52,459 nucleotides of DNA, taken from the UHGV virus genome UHGV-0060500; one strand, written 5' to 3'. The position numbers and the translations under genes were made by a program. The notes below the pieces were generated by a model. It was given only the letters and a program-made list of their open reading frames with translations, ran no database searches and had not been told where the DNA came from. This DNA is from a virus. Shown here in pieces: positions 5,368-51,651 of this stretch. The stretch's first letter is position 1. Each line of letters starts with the position of its first letter.

Positions 5368-5385
5368 TATGGCATTACCTCCGGT

Positions 5386-6504
5386 TTACAAAATGGAATA
5401 TTCAGGGTAATAAACAAAGCGCCCGATTTCCCCGTGATCAGGACTGTAAATTATTACCGCCGCCAGACGCCGCGACCGCCAGCCGCCATTCGTTGAATAA
5501 GCGTCTTTGCCCGCTAACGTGCCGTGATACTCAACAACGCCTAACGATGATTCAATCAACCGTTGGTGGTGCCAGTGCCCGCAATGAGCATAAACCGCCG
5601 CAGACTTACCGAAATCTTCCCGCCAGTCAGAGACGCAGGCAGACAACAAATTTTCTGGTTTTTTGATGGTGTGTCCGTGGTGGTAAGCAAGGAATGTTTT
5701 GCCGTACTGTGTGTGGTGTACGATAGCAGGTGACACGTCAACCGTTACGCGCGGTTCATCTTCGTAAAAAGCCGCCAGCGCAGCACGTAGCCAAATCATC
5801 CCCGACTGATCGTGATTACCTGATAATACCTGGATTTCGATTTCTTTGTGGTTTAACAACATCTTTCCTACAGCACGGCGGACTGACCGGATCGCCACAT
5901 AAACAAGTTTTGCGTAGCGTGAATCGCAATCAAGTACGTGATTGCTTGATGGCGTCACTGGCAACAGCCCATCAGTGTGAAGAACATCCCCACCGAGAAG
6001 CAATACAGCTTTTTCAGACATCGGCGCTGCGCCTACCGCGTAGTCAAAGAAATCATTTAGCACGCGTTCAGCGATCCCGGTGTCGTAGCTCTCACCGCAT
6101 TCAGCTTTATGAGCAAGCGCCCCGATATGCAGATCGAATACCGGATAAAGGGCCAGGCTTTTTTGGAAATCAATTTCCGGCACTGGCACGGCCTCCGCGC
6201 GTGGCATGTCTTCCGTGAAAGCATCGCAAGCCGCTTGCATTAGCCTTTCCATTTCATCGCGATCACGGGCTGTTTTAATCCAGCGCATAATCACATTGCC
6301 ATCCTTATCGACGAGCAATGACTCACCATTGACGCCAAAGCCCGGCGCGCGACGCGTGGATATTAAACCGCGTTTCGCCAACCGTGCGCCCAGGCGTTCG
6401 ACGTTGCGTTTTGCCATTCCATATTCTTCTGCTATTTGCTTGTAAGTTTTCCCCTTGTTGTACTCGGCGATCAGTTCCTCATCGCTGATCTTTCTTTGTG
6501 ACAT
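5386..6504 (-). CDS. HTH domain protein fused to calcineurin-like metallophosphoesterase domain (replication-module protein)
   Basis: 372 aa; N-terminal HTH (TYKQIAEEYGMAKRNVERL); phosphoesterase motifs FDLHIG, GGDVLHTDG, SGNHDQ, GHWHH. Confidence 0.6.
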   Translation of the reverse strand: MSQRKISDEELIAEYNKGKTYKQIAEEYGMAKRNVERLGARLAKRGLISTRRAPGFGVNGESLLVDKDGNVIMRWIKTARDRDEMERLMQAACDAFTEDMPRAEAVPVPEIDFQKSLALYPVFDLHIGALAHKAECGESYDTGIAERVLNDFFDYAVGAAPMSEKAVLLLGGDVLHTDGLLPVTPSSNHVLDCDSRYAKLVYVAIRSVRRAVGKMLLNHKEIEIQVLSGNHDQSGMIWLRAALAAFYEDEPRVTVDVSPAIVHHTQYGKTFLAYHHGHTIKKPENLLSACVSDWREDFGKSAAVYAHCGHWHHQRLIESSLGVVEYHGTLAGKDAYSTNGGWRSRRLAAVIIYSPDHGEIGRFVYYPEYSIL

Positions 6505-6681
6505 AACGTTATTACCTCCGGTTCGCGGAATGAGTATTTATTCATAAATAACTAATTTTTATTAACATGGATTTCACGGTGTCAAAAAATGCCAGTAGGG
6601 TTAATCAACAACTTATGCAAATTGAAATAACCACTTAATGAATAACTAATCGTATACATTGCGGTTTACAATTTGTATACA

Positions 6682-7818
6682 TTAGGATATAGCACAACGG
6701 AAAAACTTGCACCCCAAATAATCTTCAATGCGTTTTTGTCTTATCGCATCGCTTTTTACTTGCCGTTTGTGATGTGACTCATCAATTTCTACAGCAACGT
6801 TATTCACAGGATCGTAGCCATCAATAAAATACTTATTGCCAGCAACATCAACAGGATATTGCCTTATTAATTTAACTCCTTTTAGTTTTTCATACATAGT
6901 TAAGCCAGCATGTTCATAACGCTTCCTAATCATATTTTTACAATTATCTCTCATTTCTGATAATTTCGAGTCGTACTCCTTTTTTATTTCTTCAATTACA
7001 TTTTTATCGCTTTTTAATTCAATAAAGTTTTCTATGTCGTTATAATTCCCGCATTCAAAATTATTATTAAGACCTTTATTTTCACCCCATGCATGATACT
7101 TTTCTGCTATCTTATCGCTAATATATCTTTCATACCCATAATTTGTTTTAACTATAAAATATTCAATATTTAAATCAATGGTAAACTCATCATTATTGAG
7201 GTGTTCAGTTAAAAACGCATCTGGATCTGCAATATCGCTTGAATGGAACAACCTTACCCATAGCTTTTCTATTGATACTCCGCGAGTGACGAACAACCAT
7301 TTTTTGTACTTTTCAGCATCTTCTTTTGACACATACACAGAACATCGCCCAGGAGTATCACTCGTTTCAACATAATTGTTACACCATAAAATATAATTAT
7401 AAGCATAAGGACTATCTTTTTTGGTGTTATTTGAATATGTATTAAAGATATCTTGCAAGTCAACTAATCCACAAGATTCAATAACTGGCTTAACCCATTT
7501 TTCATTATATTCATAATGTCTATATTTACCAGGTGTAACGAATCTAATAAACGTTATGGGTGTGATATACACATCATCACCATCAACAATAAAATCCTTG
7601 TATTCCTCAAATCCGTAAAGATCAGAGTATTTAACAAATGATTTAAGTCTATCAATTTCAAGTTCAGAAACCAGATTATTAACAGACAGTAATTGCGTGT
7701 CCTTACAATTGAGTTTCATATGATAAGTAGCAATCACATATACCTCCTTTATTAATTTTCTATATAACGCCTCAGACGCGCTACAACGCAAAAATCCCAC
7801 CGCGTAACCCGTTTGCAC
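6682..7818 (-). CDS. AT-rich moron protein with C-terminal PD-(D/E)xK (DUF559/Vsr-like) nuclease-like domain; true start probably 7720-7745
   Basis: Markedly lower GC than neighbours; C-terminus YPVDVAGNKYFIDGYDPVNNVAVEIDESHHKRQ...RQKRIEDYLGCKFFR fits the restriction-endonuclease-like fold pattern; strong SD AAGGAGG near 7750. Confidence 0.55.
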   Translation of the reverse strand: MQTGYAVGFLRCSASEALYRKLIKEVYVIATYHMKLNCKDTQLLSVNNLVSELEIDRLKSFVKYSDLYGFEEYKDFIVDGDDVYITPITFIRFVTPGKYRHYEYNEKWVKPVIESCGLVDLQDIFNTYSNNTKKDSPYAYNYILWCNNYVETSDTPGRCSVYVSKEDAEKYKKWLFVTRGVSIEKLWVRLFHSSDIADPDAFLTEHLNNDEFTIDLNIEYFIVKTNYGYERYISDKIAEKYHAWGENKGLNNNFECGNYNDIENFIELKSDKNVIEEIKKEYDSKLSEMRDNCKNMIRKRYEHAGLTMYEKLKGVKLIRQYPVDVAGNKYFIDGYDPVNNVAVEIDESHHKRQVKSDAIRQKRIEDYLGCKFFRCAIS

Positions 7819-7890
7819 AGGTTGCAGTGTCTTATTGCGCCAGAGACGCTATCAGGTGGCTAATTTTCGGTTTACAGACTGGTAGGTAGG

Positions 7891-7992
7891 TTATGGATTA
7901 ACGAGAAGGTACAAACCGCCGAACAAAACGACGTTAACATCTATTGCCGCAGCTATGGCGAAAGCCAGGGCGAAAACGTGTTTACTATCCAT
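7891..7992 (-). CDS. Tiny hydrophobic peptide (33 aa, MDSKHVFALAFAIAAAIDVNVVLFGGLYLLVNP)
   Basis: ATG preceded by GAGAGGA; single predicted TM helix; between the O-like gene and the AT-rich moron. Confidence 0.3.
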   Translation of the reverse strand: MDSKHVFALAFAIAAAIDVNVVLFGGLYLLVNP

Positions 7993-8125
7993 TTTAAAAT
8001 CCTCTCTGTAACGCTCTCTAACGAGCTAATCGCAAAAAGGTAAGCAAGTGTAGCACCACATGCGATTTAGCTCGCTGGTGAGGTTGTTTTGTGGGTAATT
8101 TTGGATTTTTGCGGATCGTGGTTGG

Positions 8126-9067
8126 TCAAAGAGCGCCAGCGCGCGTATCACGTAGCGTTTTTGGTTTAAGCAGGAAATCAAGTGTCGCAGTGAAGCCATT
8201 GCCGAAGTAAAAATCTGAAGCCGTGTTTTTGAACGTTTCGAAGTAGGCGACAAAGCCGTTAATGCTTTTGTCTTTCAGGTAGTCAGTGAACGCATAGATC
8301 TTGCGTTCAAGATCCCGATCCAGTTCGGCAGGTGGTAACAGGCCGTCAAACGTGCTGTTAAATGCTTCCACCACGTCGGCAGCGTTTACAGTAGATGATA
8401 GCTTGCGCCATTGTTCAGCATCAGCCAGATACCCATCGAATTTAGTTACCCGGCAAATGTTAACAGGCTTAGGCACTCCACCACGGCTACGCCATTGTGT
8501 CAAAGCCCATTCGATTACTAATGTGATCTCATCCTCCGTGTATGCCTTACGTGTTTTTGTTTCTGTCAGTAGTTCGATAAATGGTTTAGCGTCACGACAC
8601 TTGCATCCTGCCTTGTCGTTGTAGAAGGCCAGGCAACGATAAGCCGCCAGATTAACCTCCCGATCTTCTTCGCTGATAGACCAGTCTTTTTCCAATACAC
8701 GGAGTGTATTGTTTTTAATGTTCTCTTTACTGGTTATATATGACTGGTTAGGGTGACTCTGTGACACTACCCCCGGTGACTCTGTGTCACTACCCCGGTG
8801 ACTCTGTGTCACTACCCCCGGTGTCACAGTGACACTACCATGCAATGACGGAAGGACTATTACATAGAAATTACTAGTTTGCTCTTTTCCTCCGATTAAG
8901 TATCTTGGTTGTTTAATCAACAACCCTTTTTCACAAAGTGAGTCTACAGCCCTCATAGCTGTTCTTTTGCTGATCTCACACTCCTTTGCTATGTGATGGT
9001 AAGAAGGGTAACACTCGCCGTTATCATTAGCGTTATCAGCTAACTTCAACAGCACTAGTTTGTGCAT
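8126..9067 (-). CDS. Replication initiation protein (lambda O-like, N-terminal winged HTH, conserved phage C-terminal domain)
   Basis: N-terminus LKLADNANDNGECYPSYHHIAKECEISKRTAMRAV typical of phage replication initiator HTH; iterons inside the gene; start taken at Met 9067 (SD GAGGT), longer ORF-track start to 9133 is unlikely. Confidence 0.75.
   Translation of the reverse strand: MHKLVLLKLADNANDNGECYPSYHHIAKECEISKRTAMRAVDSLCEKGLLIKQPRYLIGGKEQTSNFYVIVLPSLHGSVTVTPGVVTQSHRGSDTESPGVVSQSHPNQSYITSKENIKNNTLRVLEKDWSISEEDREVNLAAYRCLAFYNDKAGCKCRDAKPFIELLTETKTRKAYTEDEITLVIEWALTQWRSRGGVPKPVNICRVTKFDGYLADAEQWRKLSSTVNAADVVEAFNSTFDGLLPPAELDRDLERKIYAFTDYLKDKSINGFVAYFETFKNTASDFYFGNGFTATLDFLLKPKTLRDTRAGAL
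8752..8840. repeat. Origin iterons: three and a half copies of the 22-23 bp repeat GGTGACTCTGTGTCACTACCCC inside the O-like gene, followed by an AT-rich segment
   Basis: Direct tandem repeats each containing the inverted half-sites GTGAC/GTCAC; the AT-rich stretch 8690-8750 lies downstream in the O reading direction, as in lambda ori. Confidence 0.7.
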
Positions 9068-9232
9068 TGGGTCGCCGACCTCAGTATGGAAGACCTCTAC
9101 CATTAGCCGCATACTCATAAGCATTAACCTCATGGCGAACTAAAACATTAACTGATAAACACAGAAGAAACCTGGCAGCTGGCTGATTAGGCCGCTTCTT
9201 TTCAGTTGATGCAGTGCAGAGATAGTGTCGCG

Positions 9233-9385
9233 TTACGAAATTTCGCACATTTCCGCGATCTCTTCTGGCGTTACTTCGCTTTTGCCGTTGCATCCAGCCT
9301 TTGTTGCCAGTGCAATTAAGATGAGTTTTTGCGCCGGATCATTGTTATTCAGGCGAATATCAAAAGCCTTGCGCACGTAATACAT
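9233..9385 (-). CDS. Small protein (50 aa) paralogous to the N-terminal HTH segment of the O-like initiator
   Basis: DPAQKLILIALATKAGCNGKSEVTPEEIAEMCEIS aligns with O residues DPMHKLVLLKLADNANDNGECYPSYHHIAKECEIS; strong SD AGGAGA 8 nt upstream of the ATG at 9385. Confidence 0.45.
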   Translation of the reverse strand: MYYVRKAFDIRLNNNDPAQKLILIALATKAGCNGKSEVTPEEIAEMCEIS

Positions 9386-9427
9386 ATTCTTTTCTCCTAT
9401 GGTTAGAGTGAACGCGCGGGCGGGCAT

Positions 9428-9690
9428 CCCATTAGCATTAGATAGCAGTGACTGACCGCTGAACAGATCCCGCCGTTGCGTGATATTTGTTTTTCGCTTC
9501 GCAGCGACACCGGATTTTTAAAGAGCTTAAGGTAAGTGCCTTTTTGTGCCTTCAGTTATCTTTTTCCTTGCGTCTTTGCAAGTATGGCCTTACCTTGTCT
9601 GCAAGTTTACAAAATGGAATTTTAAGATCAAGGCTTAAAATACACGTTTTGTGACTTGCATCAAACTTTTTGAGGTTATAGGGTAGCGAC
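9428..9690. promoter_or_regulatory. Divergent immunity-region control region between the replication operon and the cI-like repressor
   Basis: 263 bp non-coding region between divergent operons; contains the repeated TGCAAGT elements and one copy of the dispersed GTTTACAAAATGG motif (9605-9617). Confidence 0.5.
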
Positions 9691-10338
9691 ATGAAAACAA
9701 AATGGTATGACTTAGCAAAGCAGCTCATGCGGGCGCAGGGCATGAGCCAGGATTCACTCGCGGATCGTATGGGGATAACTAAAGGCGGCCTGTCACACTG
9801 GCTGAACGGTCGCCGAGAGCCAAATCTTGAAGATATTGCGCGGATTATGCGCGAGCTTGGTCGTCGGCAGTTTACTGTTACACATGATGGCATGGTCATT
9901 GATGATTCTGTTTCTAATACACTTCAGGCCGTGCCGCCGCGTGATTTAGGTAGTTACCCGGTTATTGACTGGAAGGACACAGTAAACAATATGGATGACG
10001 CAAGGCGTTCAGCATTACGACACGTTACGACTAGCGTTATTTGTTCAGATGACAGTTACTGGCTGGTTGCCAAAGGTGAATCAATGAACGCGCCGCAGGG
10101 GTTGAGCATCCCGGCGGGGACGATGATACTTGTGGACCCGCACGCGCCAGCTATTGACGGCAAACTGGTTATAGCCCAGCTTGAGGAAGGGCAGATACCG
10201 ACGTTTAAACAGTTGATTATTGATGGAGGTCAAAGGCTTTTACGTTCGCTCAATCCGCTGTATCCGCCAATCCCTATGAATCCAGAATCAAAAATTATAG
10301 GCGTGGTGGTTGATGCGAAGATCGTAAACCTGCCATAA
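9691..10338 (+). CDS. cI: CI-like repressor (HTH_XRE plus S24 LexA-like peptidase domain)
   Basis: 215 aa; N-terminal HTH (QDSLADRMGITKGGLSHWLNGRREP); C-terminal GESM...K self-cleavage motif pattern. Confidence 0.85.
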   Translation: MKTKWYDLAKQLMRAQGMSQDSLADRMGITKGGLSHWLNGRREPNLEDIARIMRELGRRQFTVTHDGMVIDDSVSNTLQAVPPRDLGSYPVIDWKDTVNNMDDARRSALRHVTTSVICSDDSYWLVAKGESMNAPQGLSIPAGTMILVDPHAPAIDGKLVIAQLEEGQIPTFKQLIIDGGQRLLRSLNPLYPPIPMNPESKIIGVVVDAKIVNLP

Positions 10339-10343
10339 ACATT

Positions 10344-10369
10344 AGCCGCCGAATGGCGGCTTTTCTTTG
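10344..10369 (+). terminator. Rho-independent terminator after the repressor gene
   Basis: Hairpin AGCCGCCGAATGGCGGCT followed by TTTTCTTT. Confidence 0.55.
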
Positions 10370-10838
10370 CCTGGGAAACACCAAAACGTAAACAGAAAAC
10401 GTTATTTATTATTTAAATATCAATGGCATATAAAATATTTTAAAAAAGTATACAAAATGGATTGACTCGATGTTTTACGGGGCGTATATTGCGAGTCAAA
10501 GGAAGGGCGCAGGTAACAAAAGCAACTTCCTGGCACTTTAAAAATCAGGCTTAACACCTTGTCAACCGTGGAGTAACTCCCCGATGGGGGACCGAAAGCG
10601 GCACTGATAACAAGGCGCATGGGGTGTTTAAAGCGTTACATCCCCCACGAAACCGCACGCAAGGCGACGAGTCAGCTTGCTTGGAGTGAGCAAGGTCACG
10701 CCGGGAACGGCGATGATTGCGGGATTAGTTGAAAGATGTTAAGCCGCTCATTAACAATCTGGTCAGCCGCTGGAAGTGCGGCAATTAACGAAGATGATTT
10801 TTTATTAAGTATCATCAAGGATATACGGAGATCAGATT
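10370..10838 (+). promoter_or_regulatory. Long GC-rich untranslated region (candidate early leftward-type promoter and antitermination/structured RNA region)
   Basis: About 470 bp without a plausible ORF, several GC-rich hairpins (CCCCGATGGGGG, GGGGTGTTTAAAGCGTTACATCCCCC), one dispersed-motif copy at 10448-10460. Confidence 0.3.
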
Positions 10839-11129
10839 ATGAGCGTTACAATTATATATGGTAAATGTGATAGCAAAATGAATGCCAGGGAACGCAGAAG
10901 GATAAAAAGAGAAAACGAAAGAAAATCATCACCTGCAATCAATAAAACAGACAATGTGGATAAAGCTATTCGATTTGCAAACGAGGAAAGATGCAAACCA
11001 AATAGCATTAAAGAACGTCGCAAAGGATCAGTAAAATGGTATACGGAAAATGAAAGCGGCAGCTACTACCACGCAACGCAACCACGCCATTTAGGGGAAA
11101 AACCCCTGGATAAAGTCCGCTACCATTAA
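10839..11129 (+). CDS. Putative N-like antitermination protein (arginine-rich motif)
   Basis: 96 aa; MNARERRRIKRENERK resembles N-family arginine-rich RNA-binding motifs; first gene after the repressor; start may be the internal Met at 10878. Confidence 0.4.
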   Translation: MSVTIIYGKCDSKMNARERRRIKRENERKSSPAINKTDNVDKAIRFANEERCKPNSIKERRKGSVKWYTENESGSYYHATQPRHLGEKPLDKVRYH

Positions 11130-11159
11130 TACAAAATGTAAACATCCGGAGATGACATT

Positions 11160-11282
11160 ATGGTTATTCAGGCGCTTCAATTCAAACTGGCAGTAGCGGA
11201 AATGCTTCACGATGCCGAAATGTGGAGCGCCGCGAATAAAGCCTTATACATAGTGTTAACAGCACGGGAGATTAAATGGTGA
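11160..11282 (+). CDS. Hypothetical small protein (40 aa)
   Basis: ATG with GGAG 9 nt upstream; stop overlaps the erf start. Confidence 0.3.
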   Translation: MVIQALQFKLAVAEMLHDAEMWSAANKALYIVLTAREIKW

Positions 11283-14501: not shown

Positions 14502-14543
14502 CAGCGTGATTGCGATCACATAAATATACATTTTGTATTGTGA

Positions 14544-14819
14544 TTGCATATCCGTTTTGTAAGCCGAAATCAAAAGGTTTACGGTGCGGAGGAAGCAAAA
14601 ATGGAACGCGAATTGATGCTTTATTGCGTAGAAGGTGGCGTAGGTCACGATGCCTACGTCGCCGGGAAAGGCTATCCAGCCGATGAAGTGCTTTCTAATA
14701 TGCACTTCAGAGAAAATGAAAGCCAGGTGTCTGTGTGGAAACGGTGCATTGATGGTATTGAAGTTGTAAGTATCGAGCGGTATTTAGGCACGTTTGATTA
14801 CGGTGTTATTGAGGCTTAA
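14544..14819 (+). CDS. Hypothetical protein (start possibly 14601)
   Basis: ORF after an intergenic region carrying repeat motifs. Confidence 0.35.
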   Translation: MHIRFVSRNQKVYGAEEAKMERELMLYCVEGGVGHDAYVAGKGYPADEVLSNMHFRENESQVSVWKRCIDGIEVVSIERYLGTFDYGVIEA

Positions 14820-15544: not shown

Positions 15545-15778
15545 ATGGCTTTATTCAATATGTCAGAGCCGCAATTTAACGCCGTAAAGACTGCCGCCCG
15601 CGCCGCGCTTTCGGCCTGCAAAGCGGAGGTAGAGAAGAACGGCTACAGCGATAAAGCCACGCGGCTGATATTAGACAAGCATTATCGCAAGGTCGCCCCG
15701 CTAATCAGTATTGAGCGTTTTGTGTGGTTGGTGGGGTATCTGAATAACCGCTGGGGAACAGATCAGGATTATTTCTAA
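15545..15778 (+). CDS. Hypothetical protein (about 77 aa)
   Basis: ORF; internal ATG start chosen to avoid a long overlap. Confidence 0.3.
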   Translation: MALFNMSEPQFNAVKTAARAALSACKAEVEKNGYSDKATRLILDKHYRKVAPLISIERFVWLVGYLNNRWGTDQDYF

Positions 15779-18095: not shown

Positions 18096-18254
18096 AGTTT
18101 ACAAAATGGCGTCATTGCGTGATATGGATCACATAATGGCGCTTTTCGCCTTGTTCTGGTGTATCCATTTTGTATACTTCAAGCAAACAAAATGCTCTTT
18201 AAAAATCCGGCAGCGCTGAAATGCGTAGAAATCACCTGAAAAGGAGAGAGCATT

Positions 18255-23407: not shown

Positions 23408-23521
23408 GGTGTTGGACAACCATAAATGTGATCTGTATCACAATGTATACGAAATGGCATTGTTCCGGCAGTGCCGTTTTGTTATATATGAGCCACAGAA
23501 AGACGGAGGGGAGGCAAGAAG

Positions 23522-23662
23522 ATGAACGCAAACGCAAAATATCCTGCCTGGGTGTTTGAGTTATATGCCAGATACTTCGAACTACTGGCACCAGGTGAAG
23601 AAGCATTAAGCATTGACGAATACGCGGAGTGTCTGGGGTTCAAAGGAGGCAAAGAAGGATAA
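23522..23662 (+). CDS. Hypothetical small protein (46 aa)
   Basis: ATG with SD GACGGAGGGG upstream. Confidence 0.3.
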   Translation: MNANAKYPAWVFELYARYFELLAPGEEALSIDEYAECLGFKGGKEG

Positions 23663-35424: not shown

Positions 35425-35442
35425 GTATGTGGAGCAAACAAA

Positions 35443-35829
35443 ATGGTCACTACAGAACAGGCGCGGGAATATCTTGAAAGCCAGGGTATTGACCTGCCAG
35501 ACATTATCTTATCTTTGCTGGTGGAGCAGGCAAATAGCGTTAATGAATGCCTTGATGCCAACTATCCGGCCTCCACTGCAACATTGATTCAGCTTTATCT
35601 GATTGGCCTGTTAGGACTAAGCCAGGCTGATAAATACGTTTCCTCGCAGACTGGGCCGAACGGTGCGAGTCAGTCATACCGCTATGTCGATTTCAACAAA
35701 CGATGGAAGGCGGCCTATTCGTTGCTTTACTCCATTGATAAACATCACTGTACAGCCGAACTGATTCCAGCAGATCCAGAAAACACCGCGCACGCAGGGC
35801 TTTGGATAGGTAAAAGTGGGAGGATGTAA
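35443..35829 (+). CDS. Head-tail connector / DNA packaging protein
   Basis: About 128 aa after the capsid terminator; SD GGAG. Confidence 0.45.
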   Translation: MVTTEQAREYLESQGIDLPDIILSLLVEQANSVNECLDANYPASTATLIQLYLIGLLGLSQADKYVSSQTGPNGASQSYRYVDFNKRWKAAYSLLYSIDKHHCTAELIPADPENTAHAGLWIGKSGRM

Positions 35830-39509: not shown

Positions 39510-39636
39510 AACCCACCACGCTAACTTGATTTACTGACCATTCCCTTTAGCTTCCTTATACAAAATGGAGTCGTTGAAGTAAAGCCATTTTGTATAAAAT
39601 AGATACACAGATCACATTTTTGCATGAGGTTAAATC

Positions 39637-42065: not shown

Positions 42066-42320
42066 TCACTTATGAGTGCCTTTCACGCCACATAACTTGT
42101 TATAGGCATGGTGCTCAACAATTAACCAAACCTTCAAATCTTCGCTAAACAGCCTCCAATCAAGATTGATATCCATTTTGTATCCGTAACCGTCGCGTAA
42201 CTTTTTGGGGTAAACTTCTTTTCTCAGAAAGGCTTTAAGTAATTCCTTACCTTTCTTGATGATCCGGTCCTGTGCGTTTTTCTGTGCTTTCAGATTTCTG
42301 TCAATCGCTACCAGTTTCAT
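42066..42320 (-). CDS. Small basic protein (84 aa), possible RelE/YafQ-like toxin; antisense moron
   Basis: C-terminal ...DW...GTHK loosely resembles the YafQ C-terminal pattern (EPDW...RTGTHAALF) as recalled; low certainty. Confidence 0.4.
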   Translation of the reverse strand: MKLVAIDRNLKAQKNAQDRIIKKGKELLKAFLRKEVYPKKLRDGYGYKMDINLDWRLFSEDLKVWLIVEHHAYNKLCGVKGTHK

Positions 42321-42337
42321 AACTCACCCCATCATCC

Positions 42338-42493
42338 TTAGTTAAGTGCCTTCAGGAAGAAGTCCCGGTATTCATCTTCTTTCGCATTCATCATGAATTG
42401 ACCGTATTTGAATGCGTCGTCGAAACCCTTAACGATTGCTATTTCCACTTGTTCGAATGCGTTATTTAGCATTACTACTACATAGCGTTTCAT
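42338..42493 (-). CDS. Small protein (51 aa) upstream of and coupled to the 84 aa gene (possible antitoxin)
   Basis: ORF ending 17 bp before the next start; MKRYVVVMLNNAFEQVEIAIVKGFDDAFKYG... Confidence 0.35.
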   Translation of the reverse strand: MKRYVVVMLNNAFEQVEIAIVKGFDDAFKYGQFMMNAKEDEYRDFFLKALN

Positions 42494-42660
42494 TTTGGGC
42501 CTCCTTCGTTGGTACTACTTTCTTCTTGCTTTCTATATACATCTTGTTGCGTGCTATGTGAAGCCATTTTGTAAACTAGCTATAATCATTGTGACAATGA
42601 TCTTATTTTTCGCGTAGAAGCGCGTAAAGATATATACAAAATGTAACTTGTGGGGGTTTT

Positions 42661-43014
42661 ATGCCGGAAGTGTTCAGATGGACGCCGCAAAGAAGCTACA
42701 GCGTGACCAGGAAGCCAGACGTATCTGTTGTTAAGCTGGGCGATGGTTATGAGCAAAGACAGGTAAAAGGTATCAATCCATTGCTTGATAGCTACACCCT
42801 GGTGTTTAAAGGCAGTAGCGCCGGATGTGGTGATGGTGGAAACGTAGCAATCCAGGCGGAAGCATTCTTGAGGGCGCGCGGCGCGGTCGAGGCTTTTTAC
42901 TGGTCGCCGTCAATGGATAACGTGCAAAGGCTTTTTGTCTGTCGGCAATGGAGCATGACTAAAGACGGGCCTTTGTACACGCTAAACGCAACGTTTGAGC
43001 AAGTTGTTGGCTAA
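42661..43014 (+). CDS. Minor tail protein M (lambda gpM homologue)
   Basis: 117 aa; FRW...GDGYEQRQ...FYWSP...TFEQVVG matches lambda M closely as recalled. Confidence 0.85.
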   Translation: MPEVFRWTPQRSYSVTRKPDVSVVKLGDGYEQRQVKGINPLLDSYTLVFKGSSAGCGDGGNVAIQAEAFLRARGAVEAFYWSPSMDNVQRLFVCRQWSMTKDGPLYTLNATFEQVVG

Positions 43015-43367: not shown

Positions 43368-43616
43368 CTATAAGTTATCACGCAGATAATTAACGCCCTT
43401 ATCAGTGACGAATGAATGGTTAACCTGGTTTTCATCCGTCATGATGATGAATAACTTTTCATGTAGGTATTTCGCTTTCGGGTACAGCGTTAAACAGACC
43501 TGGTACAGTATCCCGCGCTCAATCAGCAAATCAATAAATTCGTGTTCATGATAACCGATGAGGCGGGCGGCCTGTTTCAACGTGTACACATAATCACCGT
43601 GATTGCGCCGCCCCAT
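43368..43616 (-). CDS. Small HTH-like protein (82 aa), antisense moron
   Basis: YTLKQAARLIGYHEHEFIDLL resembles a helix-turn-helix. Confidence 0.4.
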   Translation of the reverse strand: MGRRNHGDYVYTLKQAARLIGYHEHEFIDLLIERGILYQVCLTLYPKAKYLHEKLFIIMTDENQVNHSFVTDKGVNYLRDNL

Positions 43617-43625
43617 GTTGCCGCC

Positions 43626-43973
43626 TTATTTATCGAATGCTGAAAGGTTATCGATACAGAAATCTTTCGCCGCTTTTTCGTATTCGCGTTTTGCTTCTGG
43701 ATCGTCAGCCGGGAAACCTTTTGCGTGTATTTCACCAGGGCAAGACTGGTCCATAGAATCTGCATAATAAGCAGTGAAGCTACCATTAATATCTTTCGGG
43801 TTCATATCTTCCACCTCATCAACTATCTGTACCGGATTAGCAGCATATTTCACTGGATGGCCTAAACTACATTCAAGAATCCTGCCTTCTTCCAGGGCTA
43901 CTTCTTCGCTATCAAATAATCCGAAACACTCCTTGCTACCACTTAACCACACATCAAGACTGTATTTTTTCAT
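43626..43973 (-). CDS. Hypothetical protein (about 115 aa) with N-terminal region paralogous to the upstream small gene
   Basis: MKKYSLDVWLSGSKECFGLFDSEEVALEEGRILECSLGHPVKY; SD GAGG before the ATG at 43973. Confidence 0.45.
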   Translation of the reverse strand: MKKYSLDVWLSGSKECFGLFDSEEVALEEGRILECSLGHPVKYAANPVQIVDEVEDMNPKDINGSFTAYYADSMDQSCPGEIHAKGFPADDPEAKREYEKAAKDFCIDNLSAFDK

Positions 43974-44142
43974 TTTTGTTAGCCTCATATTTGACAGGTT
44001 CGATCTGGTATCCCAAAAGGCGGTCATCCTCAGCAAGTAAAAGCGCGTCAACCAATGCTTCACCCTCGTCGTCATACAGGGCGATAACCTTTTCCCTACC
44101 GTCTGTCATGAATACCGTCAACTTCCATAGCTTTTCAGTCAT
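43954..44142 (-). CDS. Hypothetical small protein (about 62 aa), paralogue of the N-terminus of the next gene
   Basis: MTEKLWKLTVFMTDGREKVIALYDDEGEALVDALLLAEDDRLLGYQIEPVKY; SD GGAGGTG. Confidence 0.45.
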   Translation of the reverse strand: MTEKLWKLTVFMTDGREKVIALYDDEGEALVDALLLAEDDRLLGYQIEPVKYEANKNEKIQS

Positions 44143-44271
44143 AACGCACCTCCGCGCCATTTTGTTAACTATGCTTCCGTTTGAGTAAAATATACATATT
44201 GTAAAAACCGCGATCAATCCATTTTGGTATGATTTAGCGTGACGCAGATCACAGAATGACAAGGTGAGAAA

Positions 44272-44976: not shown

Positions 44977-44978
44977 TT

Positions 44979-46183: not shown

Positions 46184-46196
46184 CAGGAGAAAAACC

Positions 46197-49100
46197 ATGA
46201 GTAGCGGCGGCGGCAAAGCCAAAACACCAACATTATTGAACGATAACCTGTATCACAAACAGTTTTATCGTGTTTTAGATATTCTCAGCGAAGGGCCGAT
46301 ATACGGTCCGGTAAACCAGAAAGCGCCATTGAATGACGTGATGCTTAATGACACTCCTGTTACTGACGCAAACGGGAATACATCAATTCCGGGGATTAGT
46401 ATAGCCTGGCGCAACGGCACGGCTGACCAATCGCCGATTAATGGTTTTAACGCCATTGAGTCAACCGTTATTGTCAACGCAAAGGTAACTCACGACACAC
46501 CAATAATCAGGACTGTTTCAGATCCAAACGTTACCCGCGTCAGGTTGAATCTTGGTGTTGATGCTCTCGTTCAGTCAGATGAAAAGGGCAATCAATATAA
46601 TACATCCGTCATGTTGATGGTTGATGTTAAACCGTCATCATCTTCTACGTGGTCGCTGATTAAAGACATACACATTGGCCCTGGTAAACAAAGCGGTGAA
46701 TACCTGGAAGCTCACATCATTAAAGCGCCGGATGAAAAACCGTTTGATATTCGCGTTCGTCGCATAACACCAGACAGCAACGGCGATCTATTGCGGAATG
46801 ATACGCGGTGGAGTAGTTACAGCGAAATAATAGATGATAATCTGTCTTATCCTCATACCGCTGTAGCTGGCGCCGTAATTGACCATGATCAGTATACTGA
46901 TACGCCTACCCGCACCTATCACCTTCGCGGCCTGATTGTTGATGTGCCTGACAACTACAACCCTGAAACGCGCACATATTCAGGTTTATGGCTTGGTGGA
47001 TTTAAAAAGGCGTATACCAATAACCCTGCATGGCTTTTCCGGTATCTGGTTAAAAACGAGCGCTTTGGACTTGCTCGACATGCTGGTTACATTGATGTTG
47101 ATGATGGCGCTTTGTACGTGCTTTCTCAATACTGCGATCAGTTGGTTGATGATGGCTATGGTGGCCTTGAACCTCGCATGACGCTTAACGCTTACATTAC
47201 GGAGCAAATGAGCGCCCGCGACCTACTGGATAACATCGCAGGTATGTTCCGTGGTATCGCGTTATGGGACGGACAACGTCTTACCGTGATGATTGATGCG
47301 CCACAAGATCCAATCGCCACCATCACAAATGCAAACGTCGTTGATGGCGCGTTTACTCGTTCAAGTATCGCACGCGCAGAATGCTACAACGCCGTGATCG
47401 TATCCTGGACTGACCCTGAAAACGGCTGGGAGCAATCAAAAGAATATGTCGCAGATGATAAACTAATCGCCCGTGATGGTTATAACGAAACCACGTTGGA
47501 GGCGTTCGGTTGCACTTCACGCGGGCAAGCGCACCGCGCTGGTAAATGGCTGATCGAAACAGCGAAACGCGAGCCGTCAAAATTCACATTTAAAATGGCC
47601 CGTGACGCCATTCACTTTACGCCGGGGGATATAATCGAGATCCTCGATAATAATCGCGCAGGCGCTCGTTTAGGCGGTCGCATCGTGGCGAACAATGGCA
47701 GAGCGATCACGGTCGACAAGGTTGATTCTGAATATATCGCGGCTGGCGACACCATCAGCTTACTTGATAGCGATGGTAAATTTAAAAAACACCAGATCAT
47801 CGGAGTTAACGGGAACATTATCACCCTTGCAGCCGCCCCGGCGTGGATTCGTAACGGCACTGTTTTTGCTGTATCAACCAACGCAGCAAAACCCGTTTTA
47901 TGTCGAATCACCAGTGTAGCAGAAACAGAAAATAACAGCGTATACACCATCGAGGCCGCACAGCATGATCCACATAAGCAGGCCGTAGTCGATAATGGCG
48001 CAATCTTCGAGATCAATAACGACACGCTTAATCACTTCCGCGTGCCGAACATTGAAAATCTGAAGGTGTTAAACGTTGGATCTGAAACGGTTCAATGTCG
48101 CGCAACATGGGAAACACAGACGACAACGCGTCGCCTGACCTTTGAGATTCGCGTGTATAACGCCGAAGGCGCTGTAGTTAAAAGCTACGAAACCACGAAT
48201 TACAGTTATGATTTTTATGGCATTGATGCTGGCAACTACTCATTAGGCATTCGTGGCAGAAATGACACGGGCATGAAGGGTGCGGAAAGCATTGTCGATC
48301 TGGTTATTGGCGCACCAGCGGCCCCAGTTGGCGTTAATTGGGTTCCCGGTGTATTCCAGGCTACAGTTTACCCGATCAGCAGAACAACGCTCACCACTGA
48401 TACCAGTTACGAGTTTTATTACTCAGGTGAAACGCAGATCACTGATCCGGCATCAATAACCACTAAAGCACAATATACCGGGCGTGGTCATCAGTGGACG
48501 TTTGGCGGCATGAATACAGGTCACACATATTACGTTTATGTGCGCGCGCGTAACGCTTTTGGTGTGTCTGACTTTGTGGAAGCGTCAGGTAAGCCAACAG
48601 AAAACTTTGATGAAATTACCGATTACGTCACCAAAGACGTAATGAATTCCAAACAATTTAAAGAAATGGTTGGTGACATTAAAGATCTAGGCGACCGCAC
48701 TGATCTTATCGAAAGCGCTACGAATGACCTTAAAACTGCTACTGACAACCTCAAAACTGCAACTGATAATCTGACCAACATAACTGACGATTTAAGGACT
48801 GAAACTGACAACCTAACCATAGAAACAGGATCAATAAAAGCTGATACTGATACGCTCAAAAAAGAAACGGAAGATCTTTATAAAAAAGTTAAGGAAAACG
48901 CCGATGATATTGGACAGCATGAGTCGAGAATCGACTCGCTGGAGGTGTCTAGCGAAAAAGTTGGCAGCGAACTGGCGCAAGCAAAAGCAAGTCTGCAAAA
49001 CGCCTCACTTGCTCTTATTAATAACTCGCTTGCACAGACTAACACTCGCGTAACTCTTACCGCTCAGTACAAGAAAGGCAGGACAGAGACGAAAGCGGAA

Positions 49101-51167
49101 ATTGACCGCATTGACAACGTTATCGCTGAAGAGAAAAAAGCGACAGCGGAATCACTGGAAACCATCACGGCAGAAATGAATGTGATGGACACAAACCTTA
49201 AAGGTCAGATCTCTAATGTGCAACGCGCAGTAGCTGACGAGGCCAGCGCCCGCGCTGAAGCTATTAACGGTGTAAATGCCTCAATAAGCAATCTTGACAA
49301 GAAAACTGACGCCAGCGTAAACCGTCTTGATCAGGCAATTGCAGACGAAACAAGTGCGCGTACTCAGGCTATCAGCGACGTGAACGCAAGTATCTCAACA
49401 CTTGACAAGAAAACTGACGCCAGCGTTAAGCGCCTCGATAATGCAATATCAGATGAAACGCAGGCAAGAAGCGACGCAATAACAGTGGTTAAAGCTGATT
49501 TAACAACGCTTGAAAATAACACAAATGCCAGTGTTAGCCGTCTTGATCAAGCTATCGCTGATGAATCAAGCGCACGTGCTCAGGCGATATCAGGTATCAG
49601 CGCGACGCTTGGCGGCGTTAAAAGTGAGGTTGATAAAAACAGCGACGAGATAGATCAGGCGAAAGCAAGTCTGCAAAACGCATCTCTGGCGCTTATTAAT
49701 AACTCAATGGCGCAAAGCAAGATGAGCACTGTTATTGAGGCGAAATACAGGAAAGGACAAACAAAAACAAAAGCGGAAATAGCAAGGGTAGACACAGCAA
49801 TCGCAGATGAGGCGAGCGCACGCGCAGAAGCTATTAGCAACGTTAACGCCAGCGTCAGTAGTCTTGAAAGCAAAACCGACGCGAGCGTTTCCCGTCTTGA
49901 TAAAGCAATCGCAGATGAGGCGAGCGCACGCGCAGAAGCTATTAGCGGGGTTAATGCGTCAATTTCCACGCTCGATAGCAAGGTGACAAGCAACGTAACC
50001 AGGATGGATAAAGCGATCGCAGATGAGAAGAATGCACGCACTGACGCAATCAGCAGCCTTAACTCATCGCTTACCAGTACGATTAATTCGAAAGTATCCG
50101 AAGTGTCAACTGCACTTTCTACGCATGAAACATCAAGCGCGGAAAAATTTGGCCAGATCTCGGCATCTTTCGACGATGTAAACTCAAGCATCACGGAATG
50201 GTCACAGGCTATGGCAACGGCAGACGAGGCATTGTCAACCAGAATCGACCAGTTGAAAGTAACTATTAACGGAAACACAACGGCGATAGAAACGACATCA
50301 AAAGCACTGACTGACTTCAAAGGTAACGTTGATGCGTCATATTCAATTAAGATTGCCACTGATAAAAACGGTATGAAATACGCTACAGGAATGTCGCTCG
50401 GCCTTACTGGTAGCGGGACTAACGTTCAATCGCAGTGTATTTTCCTCGTTGACCGTTTCGTGCTTATGACTGCGGCAGGTGGCTCCTATCAGACCCCGTT
50501 CTATGTTACTAACGGTGCTTGCTACATCCGTGATGCGTGGATCAGAGACGCATCAATCACTACCGCGAAGATTGCGCAGCAAATTCAGTCAACCAACTAT
50601 AAAGCTGGTTCGGCTGGCTGGATGCTAAATAAAAACGGCAATGCGGAGTTCAACAACGTCACTGTACGCGGTACGGTGTACGCAACATCTGGTAAATTCA
50701 CTGGTGAGATTCAGGCCACAAGCGGGAAGTTTAAAGGTACAGTAGAGGCAAAGTCATTTGTCGGTGACGTTGCTAACATGGGGGTTGGTCCAGATCGAGT
50801 GCTTGGGCATAACGGAAGTTATAGCGCAACCATCACATATAAAGACAGCACGGATAATGCATTGACGAAATCAGTTATGCTTATGGCGACTATTTCATTA
50901 ATGTCTGGTGAATATAGATCCACTTATAACGTAACGTTTAGTTGCGGAGATAAAAACAAAACAATTTCATATTACGTGCCTTATGGTGGATGCACATTAA
51001 CAGTGCAATGCGCTTTTTCTGGTTTAAAAGCATCAGATATTATCGGGAAAATATATTGTCCTCAAACATCATCATCTGAAGGATACGCATATTGTACCGC
51101 GTTGTATTCTCCAACAATGATAGTAGCAAGAGGCACCGGATCATTTAGAACATCAACGACAGCATAA
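46197..51167 (+). CDS. Host specificity protein J (central tail fibre / tip attachment protein)
   Basis: 1656 aa; N-terminal two thirds typical of lambda J-like proteins, followed by a long coiled-coil repeat region and a C-terminal receptor-binding region. Confidence 0.85.
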   Translation: MSSGGGKAKTPTLLNDNLYHKQFYRVLDILSEGPIYGPVNQKAPLNDVMLNDTPVTDANGNTSIPGISIAWRNGTADQSPINGFNAIESTVIVNAKVTHDTPIIRTVSDPNVTRVRLNLGVDALVQSDEKGNQYNTSVMLMVDVKPSSSSTWSLIKDIHIGPGKQSGEYLEAHIIKAPDEKPFDIRVRRITPDSNGDLLRNDTRWSSYSEIIDDNLSYPHTAVAGAVIDHDQYTDTPTRTYHLRGLIVDVPDNYNPETRTYSGLWLGGFKKAYTNNPAWLFRYLVKNERFGLARHAGYIDVDDGALYVLSQYCDQLVDDGYGGLEPRMTLNAYITEQMSARDLLDNIAGMFRGIALWDGQRLTVMIDAPQDPIATITNANVVDGAFTRSSIARAECYNAVIVSWTDPENGWEQSKEYVADDKLIARDGYNETTLEAFGCTSRGQAHRAGKWLIETAKREPSKFTFKMARDAIHFTPGDIIEILDNNRAGARLGGRIVANNGRAITVDKVDSEYIAAGDTISLLDSDGKFKKHQIIGVNGNIITLAAAPAWIRNGTVFAVSTNAAKPVLCRITSVAETENNSVYTIEAAQHDPHKQAVVDNGAIFEINNDTLNHFRVPNIENLKVLNVGSETVQCRATWETQTTTRRLTFEIRVYNAEGAVVKSYETTNYSYDFYGIDAGNYSLGIRGRNDTGMKGAESIVDLVIGAPAAPVGVNWVPGVFQATVYPISRTTLTTDTSYEFYYSGETQITDPASITTKAQYTGRGHQWTFGGMNTGHTYYVYVRARNAFGVSDFVEASGKPTENFDEITDYVTKDVMNSKQFKEMVGDIKDLGDRTDLIESATNDLKTATDNLKTATDNLTNITDDLRTETDNLTIETGSIKADTDTLKKETEDLYKKVKENADDIGQHESRIDSLEVSSEKVGSELAQAKASLQNASLALINNSLAQTNTRVTLTAQYKKGRTETKAEIDRIDNVIAEEKKATAESLETITAEMNVMDTNLKGQISNVQRAVADEASARAEAINGVNASISNLDKKTDASVNRLDQAIADETSARTQAISDVNASISTLDKKTDASVKRLDNAISDETQARSDAITVVKADLTTLENNTNASVSRLDQAIADESSARAQAISGISATLGGVKSEVDKNSDEIDQAKASLQNASLALINNSMAQSKMSTVIEAKYRKGQTKTKAEIARVDTAIADEASARAEAISNVNASVSSLESKTDASVSRLDKAIADEASARAEAISGVNASISTLDSKVTSNVTRMDKAIADEKNARTDAISSLNSSLTSTINSKVSEVSTALSTHETSSAEKFGQISASFDDVNSSITEWSQAMATADEALSTRIDQLKVTINGNTTAIETTSKALTDFKGNVDASYSIKIATDKNGMKYATGMSLGLTGSGTNVQSQCIFLVDRFVLMTAAGGSYQTPFYVTNGACYIRDAWIRDASITTAKIAQQIQSTNYKAGSAGWMLNKNGNAEFNNVTVRGTVYATSGKFTGEIQATSGKFKGTVEAKSFVGDVANMGVGPDRVLGHNGSYSATITYKDSTDNALTKSVMLMATISLMSGEYRSTYNVTFSCGDKNKTISYYVPYGGCTLTVQCAFSGLKASDIIGKIYCPQTSSSEGYAYCTALYSPTMIVARGTGSFRTSTTA
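48960..50060 (+). repeat. Nested in-frame repeats within J: duplicated block of about 690 bp (starting near 48963 and 49661) containing repeats of a 34 aa unit
   Basis: Repeated peptide DASV.RLD.AIADE.SARA.AIS.VNASIS.LD.KT and duplicated QAKASLQNASLALINNS...KAEI segments visible in the translation. Confidence 0.7.
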
Positions 51168-51197
51168 AAAACGGGGCATAAGCCCCGTTTTTTTTTA
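51166..51197. terminator. Strong bidirectional rho-independent terminator after J
   Basis: AAAAACGGGGCATAAGCCCCGTTTTTTTTT. Confidence 0.8.
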
Positions 51198-51207
51198 TGC
51201 ATTGTTT

Positions 51208-51453
51208 TTATTTTTTACACCCATCATTTACACCAGAAAAATGGATAGGTAAATTACATTCACTGTCAATAATTTTACCTTGTAGTTGTTTTTCTTTCCA
51301 TGAGTCAGTATTGAAATAACTCGAACGTTGGTTATCAAGGCCAGTATCACCATATTGAGCAGTGCCAGCATCACTCTTATCTGTCGAATTTACAGAAGCA
51401 AAAGCACCAAAAGACAGAGCTGATAAGATGCAAGCAACAATTAGTTTTTTCAT
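51208..51453 (-). CDS. Small secreted protein (about 81 aa, signal peptide), moron downstream of J
   Basis: MKKLIVACILSALSFGAFA signal peptide; SD AAGGTGA; longer ORF-track start to 51510 unlikely. Confidence 0.5.
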   Translation of the reverse strand: MKKLIVACILSALSFGAFASVNSTDKSDAGTAQYGDTGLDNQRSSYFNTDSWKEKQLQGKIIDSECNLPIHFSGVNDGCKK

Positions 51454-51651
51454 TGTATTCACCTTACTGTTTGTTTTACTGTCATTTGTTGTTCGTGATG
51501 ATCCACCCATCCGATGAGCAAATCACCGCAGAAGCTATCATTTCGTATGTTGATATAGATCAAAAAAATACATTATGTATAAGCCCAAAGTGTAACACAG
51601 ATCACAAAATGGTAGAATTGTTTAGTTAATTAACAAAACGGAGTTATTGCG

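Follow-up and report, generated by a model that had tools for sequence, protein, structure and literature searches.

A 17-bp motif dispersed across an mEpimmI-group prophage is probably the operator of its lambda-type CI repressor

INTRODUCTION

The virus genome UHGV-0060500, a stretch of 52,459 nucleotides called the window throughout, carries a short motif at many junctions between its gene modules, which raises the question of what protein reads the motif and what it does there. The window is a temperate siphophage of 52 kb, a prophage that belongs to the coliphage group mEpimmI (mEp021) and is 85–90% identical to members of the group (mEp010, mEp021, mEp044 and others), and related prophages are present in 35 complete E. 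coli genomes. An earlier note, made from the letters of the window alone, described a 13-bp motif and offered several functions for it: a binding site for a phage- or host-encoded regulator, comparable in idea to dispersed stoperators, a phage-specific promoter element, or a recombination boundary. Here we find that the motif belongs to a 17-bp pseudo-palindrome that flanks the repressor gene cI, recurs far from cI at predicted promoters, and follows one clade of CI repressors, and we conclude that it is probably the CI operator.

Phages of the mEpimmI group have been reported in human faeces as commonly as lambdoid phages (PMC11893012). The group is described as having a lambda-like repressor, Rep021, which makes cells immune to every mEpimmI phage, an N-like antiterminator together with its three nut sites, and exclusion lipoproteins, and most of its lysogens are not ultraviolet (UV)-inducible (PMC11893012). 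The published position of nutL is upstream of the repressor gene, and that of nutR2 is after the methyltransferase gene. The same description (PMC11893012) defines no operators or promoters, and we found no account of an operator, early promoter or induction route for mEpimmI phages in the searchable literature. A full-text literature search with the motif sequence returned no phage paper, and an Rfam search gave 0 matches.

RESULTS

The motif is enriched and forms a 17-bp pseudo-palindrome

The core 9-mer, ACAAAATGG, has 13 copies in the window. Dinucleotide-preserving shuffles predict 0.79 (maximum 3), and none of 100 attained the observed count. It ranks first among the strand-collapsed 9-mers of the window, being both the most frequent and the most over-represented. 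The strong excess reported in the earlier note is therefore genuine, with two corrections: the chance expectation is 0.79 by shuffling rather than 0.4, and the core count is 13 rather than 8. The eight exact copies of the 13-mer, (G/T)T(A/T)TACAAAATGG, all lie at the positions and on the strands first given for them (5384, 9605, 10448, 18097, 18165 reverse complement, 39556, 39585 reverse complement and 42564 reverse complement). The core recurs beyond these at 9697 (cI codons 3–5), 35438, 42173 (reverse complement), 44157 (reverse complement) and 51604. The one-mismatch copies are likewise real, at 23445 (GTATACGAAATGG), 11127 (TAATACAAAATGTAAAC), 14548 (reverse complement, GCTTACAAAACGG) and 42632 (ATATACAAAATGTAACT); two further near-copies had been listed, at 44215 (reverse complement), which is weak, and at 51600, which has an exact core.

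A 17-mer matrix was trained on 14 window sites, and a strong site was defined as one scoring at least 14 bits. The window contains 19 such matches against 1.04 in first-order Markov simulations, and 17 matches of at least 16 bits against 0.32. The matrix added five sites that the original list had missed (6664–6680, 14524–14540, 44190–44206, 51566–51582 and 51629–51645).

The full motif, derived from variants in the window and 90 family loci, is the 17-bp pseudo-palindrome GTWTACA-AAA-TG(G/T)AWWC, of which the 13-mer is the strong left half plus the centre. In a frequency table of 158 distinct sites, T11 G12 (G/T)13 A14 W15 W16 C17 partly mirrors G1 T2 W3 T4 A5 C6 A7, with C6, G12 and G13 near-invariant, and GTATACAAAATGTAAAC and ATATACAAAATGTATAC are near-perfect palindromic variants within the family. 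Judged by its sequence, one strong plus one weak half-site is the form expected of a site for a helix-turn-helix (HTH) dimer. The commonest short spacing between neighbouring family sites is 24–25 bp (47 distinct sequence contexts). The initial reading of the motif as 13 bp on one strand thus missed the dyad symmetry, the 25-bp pairing and, as described below, the adjacent CRP-like palindromes.

Coding status was judged under a deliberately generous open reading frame (ORF) model, which leaves 7% of the window non-coding; 13 of the 19 strong sites fall in this fraction (P = 2e-11). Four of the six called coding lie in ORFs that are unannotated in mEp021 or mEp010, and the true exceptions are the copy at 42169–42185 and the copy at the cI start, so that the claim of exclusive placement in non-coding junctions or at gene ends is nearly right. 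Strong sites are not confined to the neighbourhood of cI: 17 of 19 lie more than 700 bp from it, the farthest 41 kb away.

Several candidates were set aside. The copy of ACAAAATGG at 35434–35450 is treated as chance and not counted as an operator because it coincides with a head-module gene start (GGAG, then ATG) and scores only 10 bits. As a −35 hexamer, TTTACA/TATACA is unsatisfactory, most copies being judged by eye to have no −10 at the right spacing. None of the sites for TyrR, OmpR, IHF and LexA, nor the 434 operator, fits the motif, likeness being judged by eye, and the LexA box CTGT-N8-ACAG has 0 matches anywhere in the window.

Sites flank the cI gene on both sides

Copies of the motif surround the repressor gene. 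They are called operators below in keeping with the assignment to CI, and the features of the region are as follows.

9691–10338, + strand: cI-like repressor gene, 215 aa, HTH_3 and Peptidase_S24 domains (Pfam); Rep021 homologue and proposed binder of the motif
9510–9526, − strand: nutL boxA-like GCTCTTTAAAAATCCGG, downstream of the putative PL, in agreement with the published nutL position
9605–9621, + strand: operator O_a, GTTTACAAAATGGAATT, 23.9 bits; centre at −16 of the putative PL
9641–9657, − strand: operator O_b, degenerate in the window (AGTCACAAAACGTGTAT); centre at about −40 of a PRM-like promoter and −52 of PL
9693–9709, + strand: operator-like copy GAAAACAAAATGGTATG over cI codons 1–7, 13.6 bits; at about +12 of the putative PRM
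10448–10464, + strand: operator at PR, 23.4 bits; centre at −41, overlapping the −35 of PR
10473–10489, + strand: weak operator TTTTACG-GGG-CGTATAT at −16 of PR; GC-rich centre, both half-sites recognisable by eye

CI matches the lambda repressor (3bdn) over its full length (E = 1.4e-20). It keeps the Ser/Lys catalytic pair and has no Ala-Gly self-cleavage site (alignment columns 100–125), which agrees with the published remark that UV does not induce most of the group's lysogens; the CI homologues of Citrobacter and Enterobacter keep the cleavage site, VSAG.

To the left of cI, the putative PL (TTGAYC, TTGATC in the window, -16-TAAACT; 9631 to 9604) points leftward into nutL, and O_a covers its spacer and −10. 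O_a is kept in 28 distinct relatives, in which base 8, the first of the three-base centre, alone varies (A, G or T). O_b adjoins the −35 of a putative leaderless, PRM-like cI promoter (TATAGG at 9677–9682), and in the alignment of relatives most have a better version of it, AGTCACAAAATGTATTT / ACAAAATGTA. The copy over cI codons 1–7 is kept in all relatives, a conservation confounded with coding constraint; it may serve autoregulation or may be retained merely as coding sequence. Operator centres thus lie at −40, +12 and −76 of the cI promoter and at −16 and −52 of PL.

To the right of cI, an unbiased promoter scan identified PR (TTGACT-17-TATATT, 10462–10490), which points rightward into nutR1 and the N-like gene. 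The operator at 10448–10464 is conserved in relatives, the divergent prophage L130 included. The equivalents of 10473–10489 read TATCACGGGGCGTATAT in mEp021 and CATCACAAGGCGTATAG in L130, and because this site falls below the matrix threshold we infer rather than score it as an operator. The cI promoter, PL and PR all have no CRP-like site. Footprinting of the cI flanks across 26–28 distinct relatives found overall conservation too high to inform, except at base 8 and O_b. An 8-bp inverted repeat around PR (TTGACTCG...CGAGTCAA) was rejected for lack of conservation and of compensatory changes among relatives.

The first gene divergent from cI was compared at 9140–9385 (−) in the window, 7488–7823 (−) in L046 and 9649–9876 (−) in L130. 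It occurs as two winged-helix alleles that are 35% identical, and as an HTH_3 Cro-like protein in L130–L132; no conserved Cro homologue is evident across the mEpimmI family members compared. The window gene, first of the leftward operon, is a homologue of mEp021 gp14, a small winged-helix protein that resembles a replication protein N-terminus. It has an in-frame stop at codon 51 (9233–9235, EIS*RDT), where relatives have Leu, and this copy may be defective or may reflect a sequencing error.

The motif follows one clade of CI repressors

Tail regions of the family carry 0.375 sites/kb; in 36 other lambdoid phages, whose L protein is 70% identical, the figure is 0.002/kb. With the motif missing from other lambdoid phages of E. 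coli, a general host factor is unlikely, and the suggestion of a host-encoded regulator loses ground accordingly. No DNA-binding protein except CI is constant across the mEpimmI family, and on these comparisons CI is the consistent partner of the motif there.

The syntenic prophages L130–L132 keep the motif at homologous places. In L130, CI is 55% identical overall, with a well-conserved N-terminal domain and an identical recognition helix, TKGGLSHWLNGRR, and the first leftward gene of these prophages encodes an unrelated HTH_3 protein. They had been considered as a heteroimmune test; since the recognition helix turned out to be common, they support the assignment to CI rather than test it.

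We then applied a matrix trained on the window alone to prophages that are otherwise unrelated and have essentially only a CI homologue in common with it.

L133/L134 (Citrobacter), CI 50% identical: the two best matches lie 44 bp before and 98 bp after cI
L047–L049, CI 38% identical: GTATACA half-sites just upstream of cI; in L049, 6 of 7 matches within 200 bp of cI
L135 (Enterobacter), CI 51% identical: 5 of 5 matches within 116 bp of cI, two of them forming a 25-bp pair with a boxA after it
L136 (Serratia), CI 40% identical: 4 of 4 matches within 187 bp of cI
L137 (control with a P22-C2-type helix), CI 38% identical: no match near cI

The four positive prophage types share a CI with an xSHWLNxRR helix and GTATAC-type palindromes at the cI flanks. 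An exact-core count had given zero in the distant-CI loci L047–L049, which tblastn shows to be unrelated phages, and it was the later matrix scan that revealed the GTATACA half-sites at their cI flanks. In other prophages of this CI clade the sites stay beside cI, which makes the dispersal a feature of the mEpimmI family. Enrichment, dyad form, positions, conservation and the link to the CI clade were all computed directly. Together, the positions round cI, the 17-bp dyad and the co-occurrence with the CI clade narrow the earlier idea of a phage-encoded regulator to the CI-like repressor.

Dispersed sites recur at predicted promoters

Each site was paired with the best nearby sigma-70-like hexamers, and the start was placed 7 nt after the −10. 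Sites outside the immunity region are as follows.

5384–5400, + strand: stand-alone operator, 21.8 bits; in the leftward operon, 17 bp before the start codon of the helicase gene
6664–6680, − strand: near-perfect palindromic operator GTATACAAATTGTAAAC, 16.6 bits (11.6 on the other strand); in a 180-bp gap between two leftward genes
11127–11143, + strand: stand-alone operator TAATACAAAATGTAAAC, 17.6 bits; over the stop codon of the N-like gene
14524–14540 and 14548–14564, − strand: operator pair, 16.8 and 17.6 bits, 24 bp apart; upstream of the gene starting at 14602
18097–18113, + strand: operator, 23.0 bits; just past the methyltransferase gene and before a terminator-like hairpin, at −80 of promoter P18165
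18161–18177, − strand: operator, 23.6 bits; centre at −16, over the spacer and −10 of P18165
23445–23486, + strand: operator pair, 23445–23461 (20.8 bits) and 23470–23486 (reverse complement, weak, 11.9 bits)
39556–39597, no single strand: inverted operator pair, 22.2 and 22.3 bits; centres 25 bp apart (39556/39581)
42169–42185, − strand: operator-like copy inside the ParE-like ORF, 19.4 bits; function uncertain; absent from mEp021, where the cassette differs
42560–42576, − strand: operator, 23.6 bits; at −41 of the putative ParE-like cassette promoter TTCACA-17-TATATA
42632–42648, + strand: operator, 17.9 bits; 13 bp upstream of the minor-tail gene starting at 42661
44215–44231 (weak), 44190–44206 and 44153–44169, − strand: three operators, 10.4, 14.8 and 17.1 bits
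51566–51582 (reverse complement), 51600–51616 and 51629–51645, no single strand: three operator-like sites, two of which score 16.1 and 14.5 bits; exact core at 51604

Operator centres recur at about −41 and −16 of predicted promoters, 25 bp apart; overall they lie at −80, −52, −41, −16, +12 and +21, in both orientations. In reverse complement, the outer half of the motif supplies the TAWACT −10 hexamers of PL and P18165. Beyond the site itself, the promoter calls are supported by a −35-like hexamer 16–17 bp upstream and by a gene in the right direction, and a boxA directly downstream supports PL and P18165 independently.

Specifically, P18165 is an internal rightward promoter (TTGTTC-16-TATACT) with operator centres at −16 and −80, a CRP-like site at −59.5 and, immediately beyond, the boxA of nutR2 (18194–18210), whose published position agrees. 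The pair at 14524/14548 is centred at −40 and −16 of a weak putative promoter, again with a CRP-like site at −59.5. The 23445 pair lies at −42 and −17 of TTGTTC-17-TATATA, upstream of a small gene at 23523, with a CRP-like site at −60.5. The segments 14503–14564 and 18116–18177 are paralogous, each reading GCGTGAT-N3-GATCACATAA, then TTGTxx, then ATATCC(A/G)TTTTGTAWRC, a likeness that suggests duplication of a promoter-operator module inside the early-right operon.

In the tail region, the inverted pair at 39556–39597, conserved in mEp021, separates the tape-measure gene from the leftward, exclusion-type lipoprotein genes. Each of its sites is at −41 of one divergent promoter and at −16 of the other, and neither promoter has a CRP-like site. 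The ParE-like cassette promoter also has a weak −16 site and no CRP-like site. The three sites at 44153–44231 lie at −41, −16 and +21 of a leftward promoter (TTGATC-17-TATATT) with a CRP-like site at −63.5; this antirepressor-cassette promoter was found by the unbiased scan and resembles PR (ATGGATTGATC-17-TATATT). The sites at 51566–51645 lie between a leftward secreted-protein gene and the last tail-fibre gene, with an extended −10, TGGTAGAAT, at 51611–51619.

Stand-alone sites are also shared among relatives. The place homologous to 5384 carries a site in mEp010, mEp021 and L130, and in mEp010 and mEp021 an HNH endonuclease gene is inserted beside it. The 11127 site is kept by mEp010 and mEp021; the corresponding L130 sequence reads GTATACAAAACGTATAA.

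CRP-like palindromes accompany the putative operators

CRP-like palindromes, TGTGA-N6-TCACA with at most one mismatch, have 6 matches in the window against 1.47 expected, and five of these stand beside operators.

18118–18133, + strand: CRP-like palindrome CGTGATATGGATCACA, flanked by the two operators in the promoter region before nutR2
14505–14520, 23427–23442 (perfect TGTGA-N6-TCACA), 44238–44253 and 51591–51606: further CRP-like palindromes

All five contain GATC. In the family loci, 205 of 240 CRP-like sites (85%) lie within 60 bp of an operator, a zone that makes up 4.8% of the DNA, and their density is 0.133/kb against 0.015/kb in other lambdoid tail regions (nine times). Their predicted positions (−59.5, −59.5, −60.5 and −63.5) are near, not exactly at, the class I position of −61.5. 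The palindromes may be bound by CRP or by a phage protein.

A second 9-mer, CAGATCACA, has four exact copies where about 0.4 are expected (23427–23435 (−), 39608–39616, 44245–44253 and 51598–51606). It lies 6–14 nt after the predicted starts at 39605 and 44240, and three of the four copies (23427, 44245 and 51598) fall inside CRP-like palindromes. Furthermore, GATCACATTT recurs at 23427 and 39608.

Accessory cassettes are bracketed by sites

As the earlier note held of its moron insertions, in the tail region sites bracket three accessory cassettes on the reverse strand. The segment 38465–39509 (−) holds two neighbouring lipoprotein genes that carry lipoboxes and whose products are likely superinfection-exclusion proteins like Lpp021 and Lpp010; a third gene, at 51208–51453 (−), encodes a small secreted protein. 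These genes lie on the reverse strand, inside or after the tail module, each bounded by bidirectional terminators.

A two-gene cassette at 42066–42493 (−), between tail genes, encodes a ParE-like toxin (Pfam ParE_like, E = 9e-12) and a 51-aa upstream partner. Its promoter region holds a perfect 17-bp palindrome, ATCATTGTGACAATGAT, at 42587–42603, which may be the cassette's own autoregulatory site. The cassette at 43368–44142 (−), between tail genes M and L, encodes an antirepressor-domain protein and two small proteins; the KilAC/ANT-like antirepressor gene at 43368–43616 matches the Pfam ANT domain.

In the early-right region, an Ipe homologue (15545–15775, +; 95% identical) lies about 1 kb downstream of the 14.5-kb CRP/operator cassette, past two terminator-like hairpins. 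Ipe of mEp021 has been reported to give lysogens a haemolytic phenotype (PMC11893012).

DISCUSSION

The motif as a probable CI operator

We conclude that the motif is probably the operator recognised by CI, the lambda-type repressor and Rep021 homologue encoded at 9691–10338, and we put the probability of this sequence-based assignment at roughly 0.78. About 20 operator copies would then most likely be spread over 52 kb at about ten promoter regions, not only beside cI, which is unusual.

Several findings weigh against this assignment. The conservation of G13 is stronger than a simple symmetric dimer model predicts. The −16 class of positions is circular in part, its geometry being partly true by construction because the −10 hexamer is the outer half of the operator, and only PR and the antirepressor-cassette promoter passed the unbiased stringent scan. 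The sites at 5384, 6664, 11127, 42169 and 42632 have no convincing promoter. At PR the only strong site is at −41, the −16 site being GC-centred and sub-threshold, and a protein at −41 is classically placed as an activator, not a repressor. A Cro-like HTH gene stands beside cI in every unrelated prophage compared; because it always adjoins cI, these comparisons do not separate CI from Cro, and Cro-type proteins may share the sites in those other prophages. We found no reports of binding or transcription starts for the mEpimmI group in the searchable literature. Finally, Ipe gives lysogens a phenotype (PMC11893012), which suggests that repression of the early-right region is incomplete.

From the computed features we infer CI binding, the transcription starts, cooperativity, and the positive or negative sign at each promoter. 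CI dimers would bind about 20 17-bp sites. Pairs 24–25 bp apart at about −41 and −16 of sigma-70 promoters would be bound cooperatively, blocking RNA polymerase. The repressed set would comprise the two divergent early promoters, the promoter before nutR2 and at least two other early-right cassettes, and also the three reverse-strand cassettes (lipoproteins, ParE-like toxin and antirepressor cluster) with the tail genes that follow them. With CI at the −41/−16 pairs, we propose, the whole prophage except cI would therefore be silenced by one protein. From its position at about −40, O_b would raise transcription from the weak leaderless cI promoter, in the manner of lambda OR2 at PRM, while the +12 copy could cap cI expression, and single sites in short gene gaps could act as looping aids or roadblocks. 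Where the −41 site is strong and the −16 site weak, the sign of regulation is uncertain: because a protein at −41 is classically an activator, CI could activate promoters with a weak −35 in the lysogen.

The antirepressor cassette, with its triple operator and flanking CRP-like site, is a candidate induction route, since CI has no Ala-Gly site, most lysogens are not induced by UV and the window has no LexA box; this is speculation. A broader picture, which we consider unlikely, is that a CI without a RecA cleavage site runs a genome-wide network in which all accessory cassettes and the KilAC operon are directly controlled and many promoters are coupled to cAMP-CRP, in which induction proceeds via nutrition and antirepressor feedback rather than the SOS response, and in which CI at −41 activates promoters with a weak −35 and represses those with a strong −35.

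Other explanations of the motif

The binder could instead be another phage protein, either a Cro-like lytic-switch factor or the first-leftward winged-helix protein, that switches promoters during lytic growth. Cro uses the same operators as CI in lambda-type switches, an HTH_3 Cro-like gene adjoins cI in the unrelated prophages, and the −41 geometry suits an activator. However, the first leftward gene is variable, being a gp14 allele with an in-frame stop in the window, about 35% identical in L046 and an unrelated HTH_3 gene in L130, whereas every occurrence of the motif goes with a conserved CI N-terminal domain and recognition helix, and we see only a slim chance that a protein other than CI is the reader. 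It is very unlikely that the motif is a promoter element read by host RNA polymerase, whether UP-like or a spacer plus −10, and spread by cassette duplication. The resemblance of ACAAAATGG at −45 to −37 to the proximal UP subsite AAAAAARNR, the TAWACT −10 hexamers at PL and P18165, and the paralogy of the two early-right cassettes would suit it, and the earlier proposal of a phage-specific promoter element is partly borne out, since the motif does overlap promoters; we attribute this overlap to the motif being an operator. Copies also occur at +12, at +21 and where there is no promoter, and UP elements are A/T-rich, fixed at −40 to −60, typical of host promoters and contacted by the alpha subunits of RNA polymerase, whereas here positions and orientations vary and conserved G/C positions and dyad symmetry are foreign to such elements. 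Moreover, the motif is absent from other E. coli lambdoid phages, and related palindromes cluster at the cI flanks of unrelated prophages, tracking the CI recognition helix.

We give least credence to the idea that the motif is a recombination linker or boundary through which related phages would exchange modules and accessory-gene cassettes. The sites do bracket variable reverse-strand cassettes and the HNH insertion point, and a check of mosaic breakpoints gave this part of the earlier note weak support, with 11 of 194 falling within 30 bp of sites against 5.1 at random positions (P = 0.03). The other 183 lie away from any site, a mild excess is expected of any intergenic feature, a 9–17 bp match is very short for homologous exchange, and the dyad, the 25-bp pairing, the promoter geometry and the CI-clade link would be left unexplained. 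A further role, compatible with CI as the binder and in our view improbable, is that the lone gap copies (5384, 6664, 11127 and 42632) act as stoperator-like roadblocks in the lysogen. They stand in gaps of 10–180 bp within one operon with no convincing promoter, and cluster A mycobacteriophages provide a precedent (PMC9283540). On the other side, orientation ignores the direction of transcription, with both strands mixed in the early-right operon and a + copy in the leftward operon, the repressor is a lambda-type dimer rather than a two-domain monomer, and with N-type antitermination at three nut sites, polymerase should pass such roadblocks.

Implications

Assignment of the motif to CI yields a consensus for the operator and a map that places about 20 sites at about ten promoter regions under proposed control. 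If true, it would mean that a lambda-family CI runs a dispersed regulon, as is the case in P1 and cluster A mycobacteriophages with unrelated repressors; it would show how exclusion lipoproteins, a toxin cassette and an antirepressor are wired into prophage immunity; and it would offer a lead on the lytic switch in lysogens that are not UV-inducible. The operator-repressor pair is also a possible orthogonal regulatory part for engineering.

Comparison with known systems

The closest parallel lies in lambda OL/OR. The repressor family is the same (HTH_3 plus S24), and the sites are 17-bp pseudo-palindromes whose 24–25-bp spacing matches that of adjacent lambda operators, about 23–24 bp, at which dimers can pair cooperatively. 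To the left and right of cI the sites overlap early promoters that diverge from each other and lead into N-type nut sites, and O_b, centred at about −40 of the leaderless cI promoter, recalls OR2 at PRM. The half-site, in contrast, is GTWTACA, and each promoter of the immunity region has one or two strong sites, against three in lambda. Rather than being confined to that region, about 20 sites are present, 17 of them 0.7–41 kb from cI, including sites in the late (tail) region, before accessory cassettes and before a second nutR. Furthermore, the window CI has no Ala-Gly cleavage site, the lysogens are mostly not UV-inducible, and a conserved Cro homologue is lacking.

In its dispersal the arrangement resembles the P1 C1 network, which has about 20 17-bp operators (22 have been listed; PMC8546580) genome-wide at many separate operons, an antirepressor locus among them. 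The P1 consensus, ATTGCTCTAATAAATTT, lacks symmetry and C1 is not related to CI, whereas here the sites have dyad character and the repressor is a lambda-type HTH_3/S24 protein; P1 is also a plasmid prophage, whereas the mEpimmI prophage integrates.

The stoperators of cluster A phages (L5 gp71 type) are similar in number and placement, with more than 20 short repressor sites at promoters and in short intergenic gaps (PMC9283540). A stoperator is asymmetric, 13 bp long and recognised by a repressor monomer that has two DNA-binding domains, and it functions only when oriented one way with respect to transcription (PMC9283540). Here, by contrast, the sites are 17-bp pseudo-palindromes, the repressor is a lambda-type protein with S24, and orientation is independent of transcription: the early-right operon carries 11127 +, 14524 −, 14548 −, 18097 +, 18161 − and 23445 +, and the leftward operon 5384 +. 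The stoperator likeness drawn in the earlier note therefore holds for the dispersal, and the sequence features exclude membership in that family.

The conserved inverted repeats (CIRs) of the temperate phage phiC31, repressor-bound 17-bp sequences that overlap promoters at many early-region loci, are likewise similar to the motif. They differ from it in host, repressor family and sequence and are known only from the early region, whereas the sites of the mEpimmI prophage extend into the tail region.

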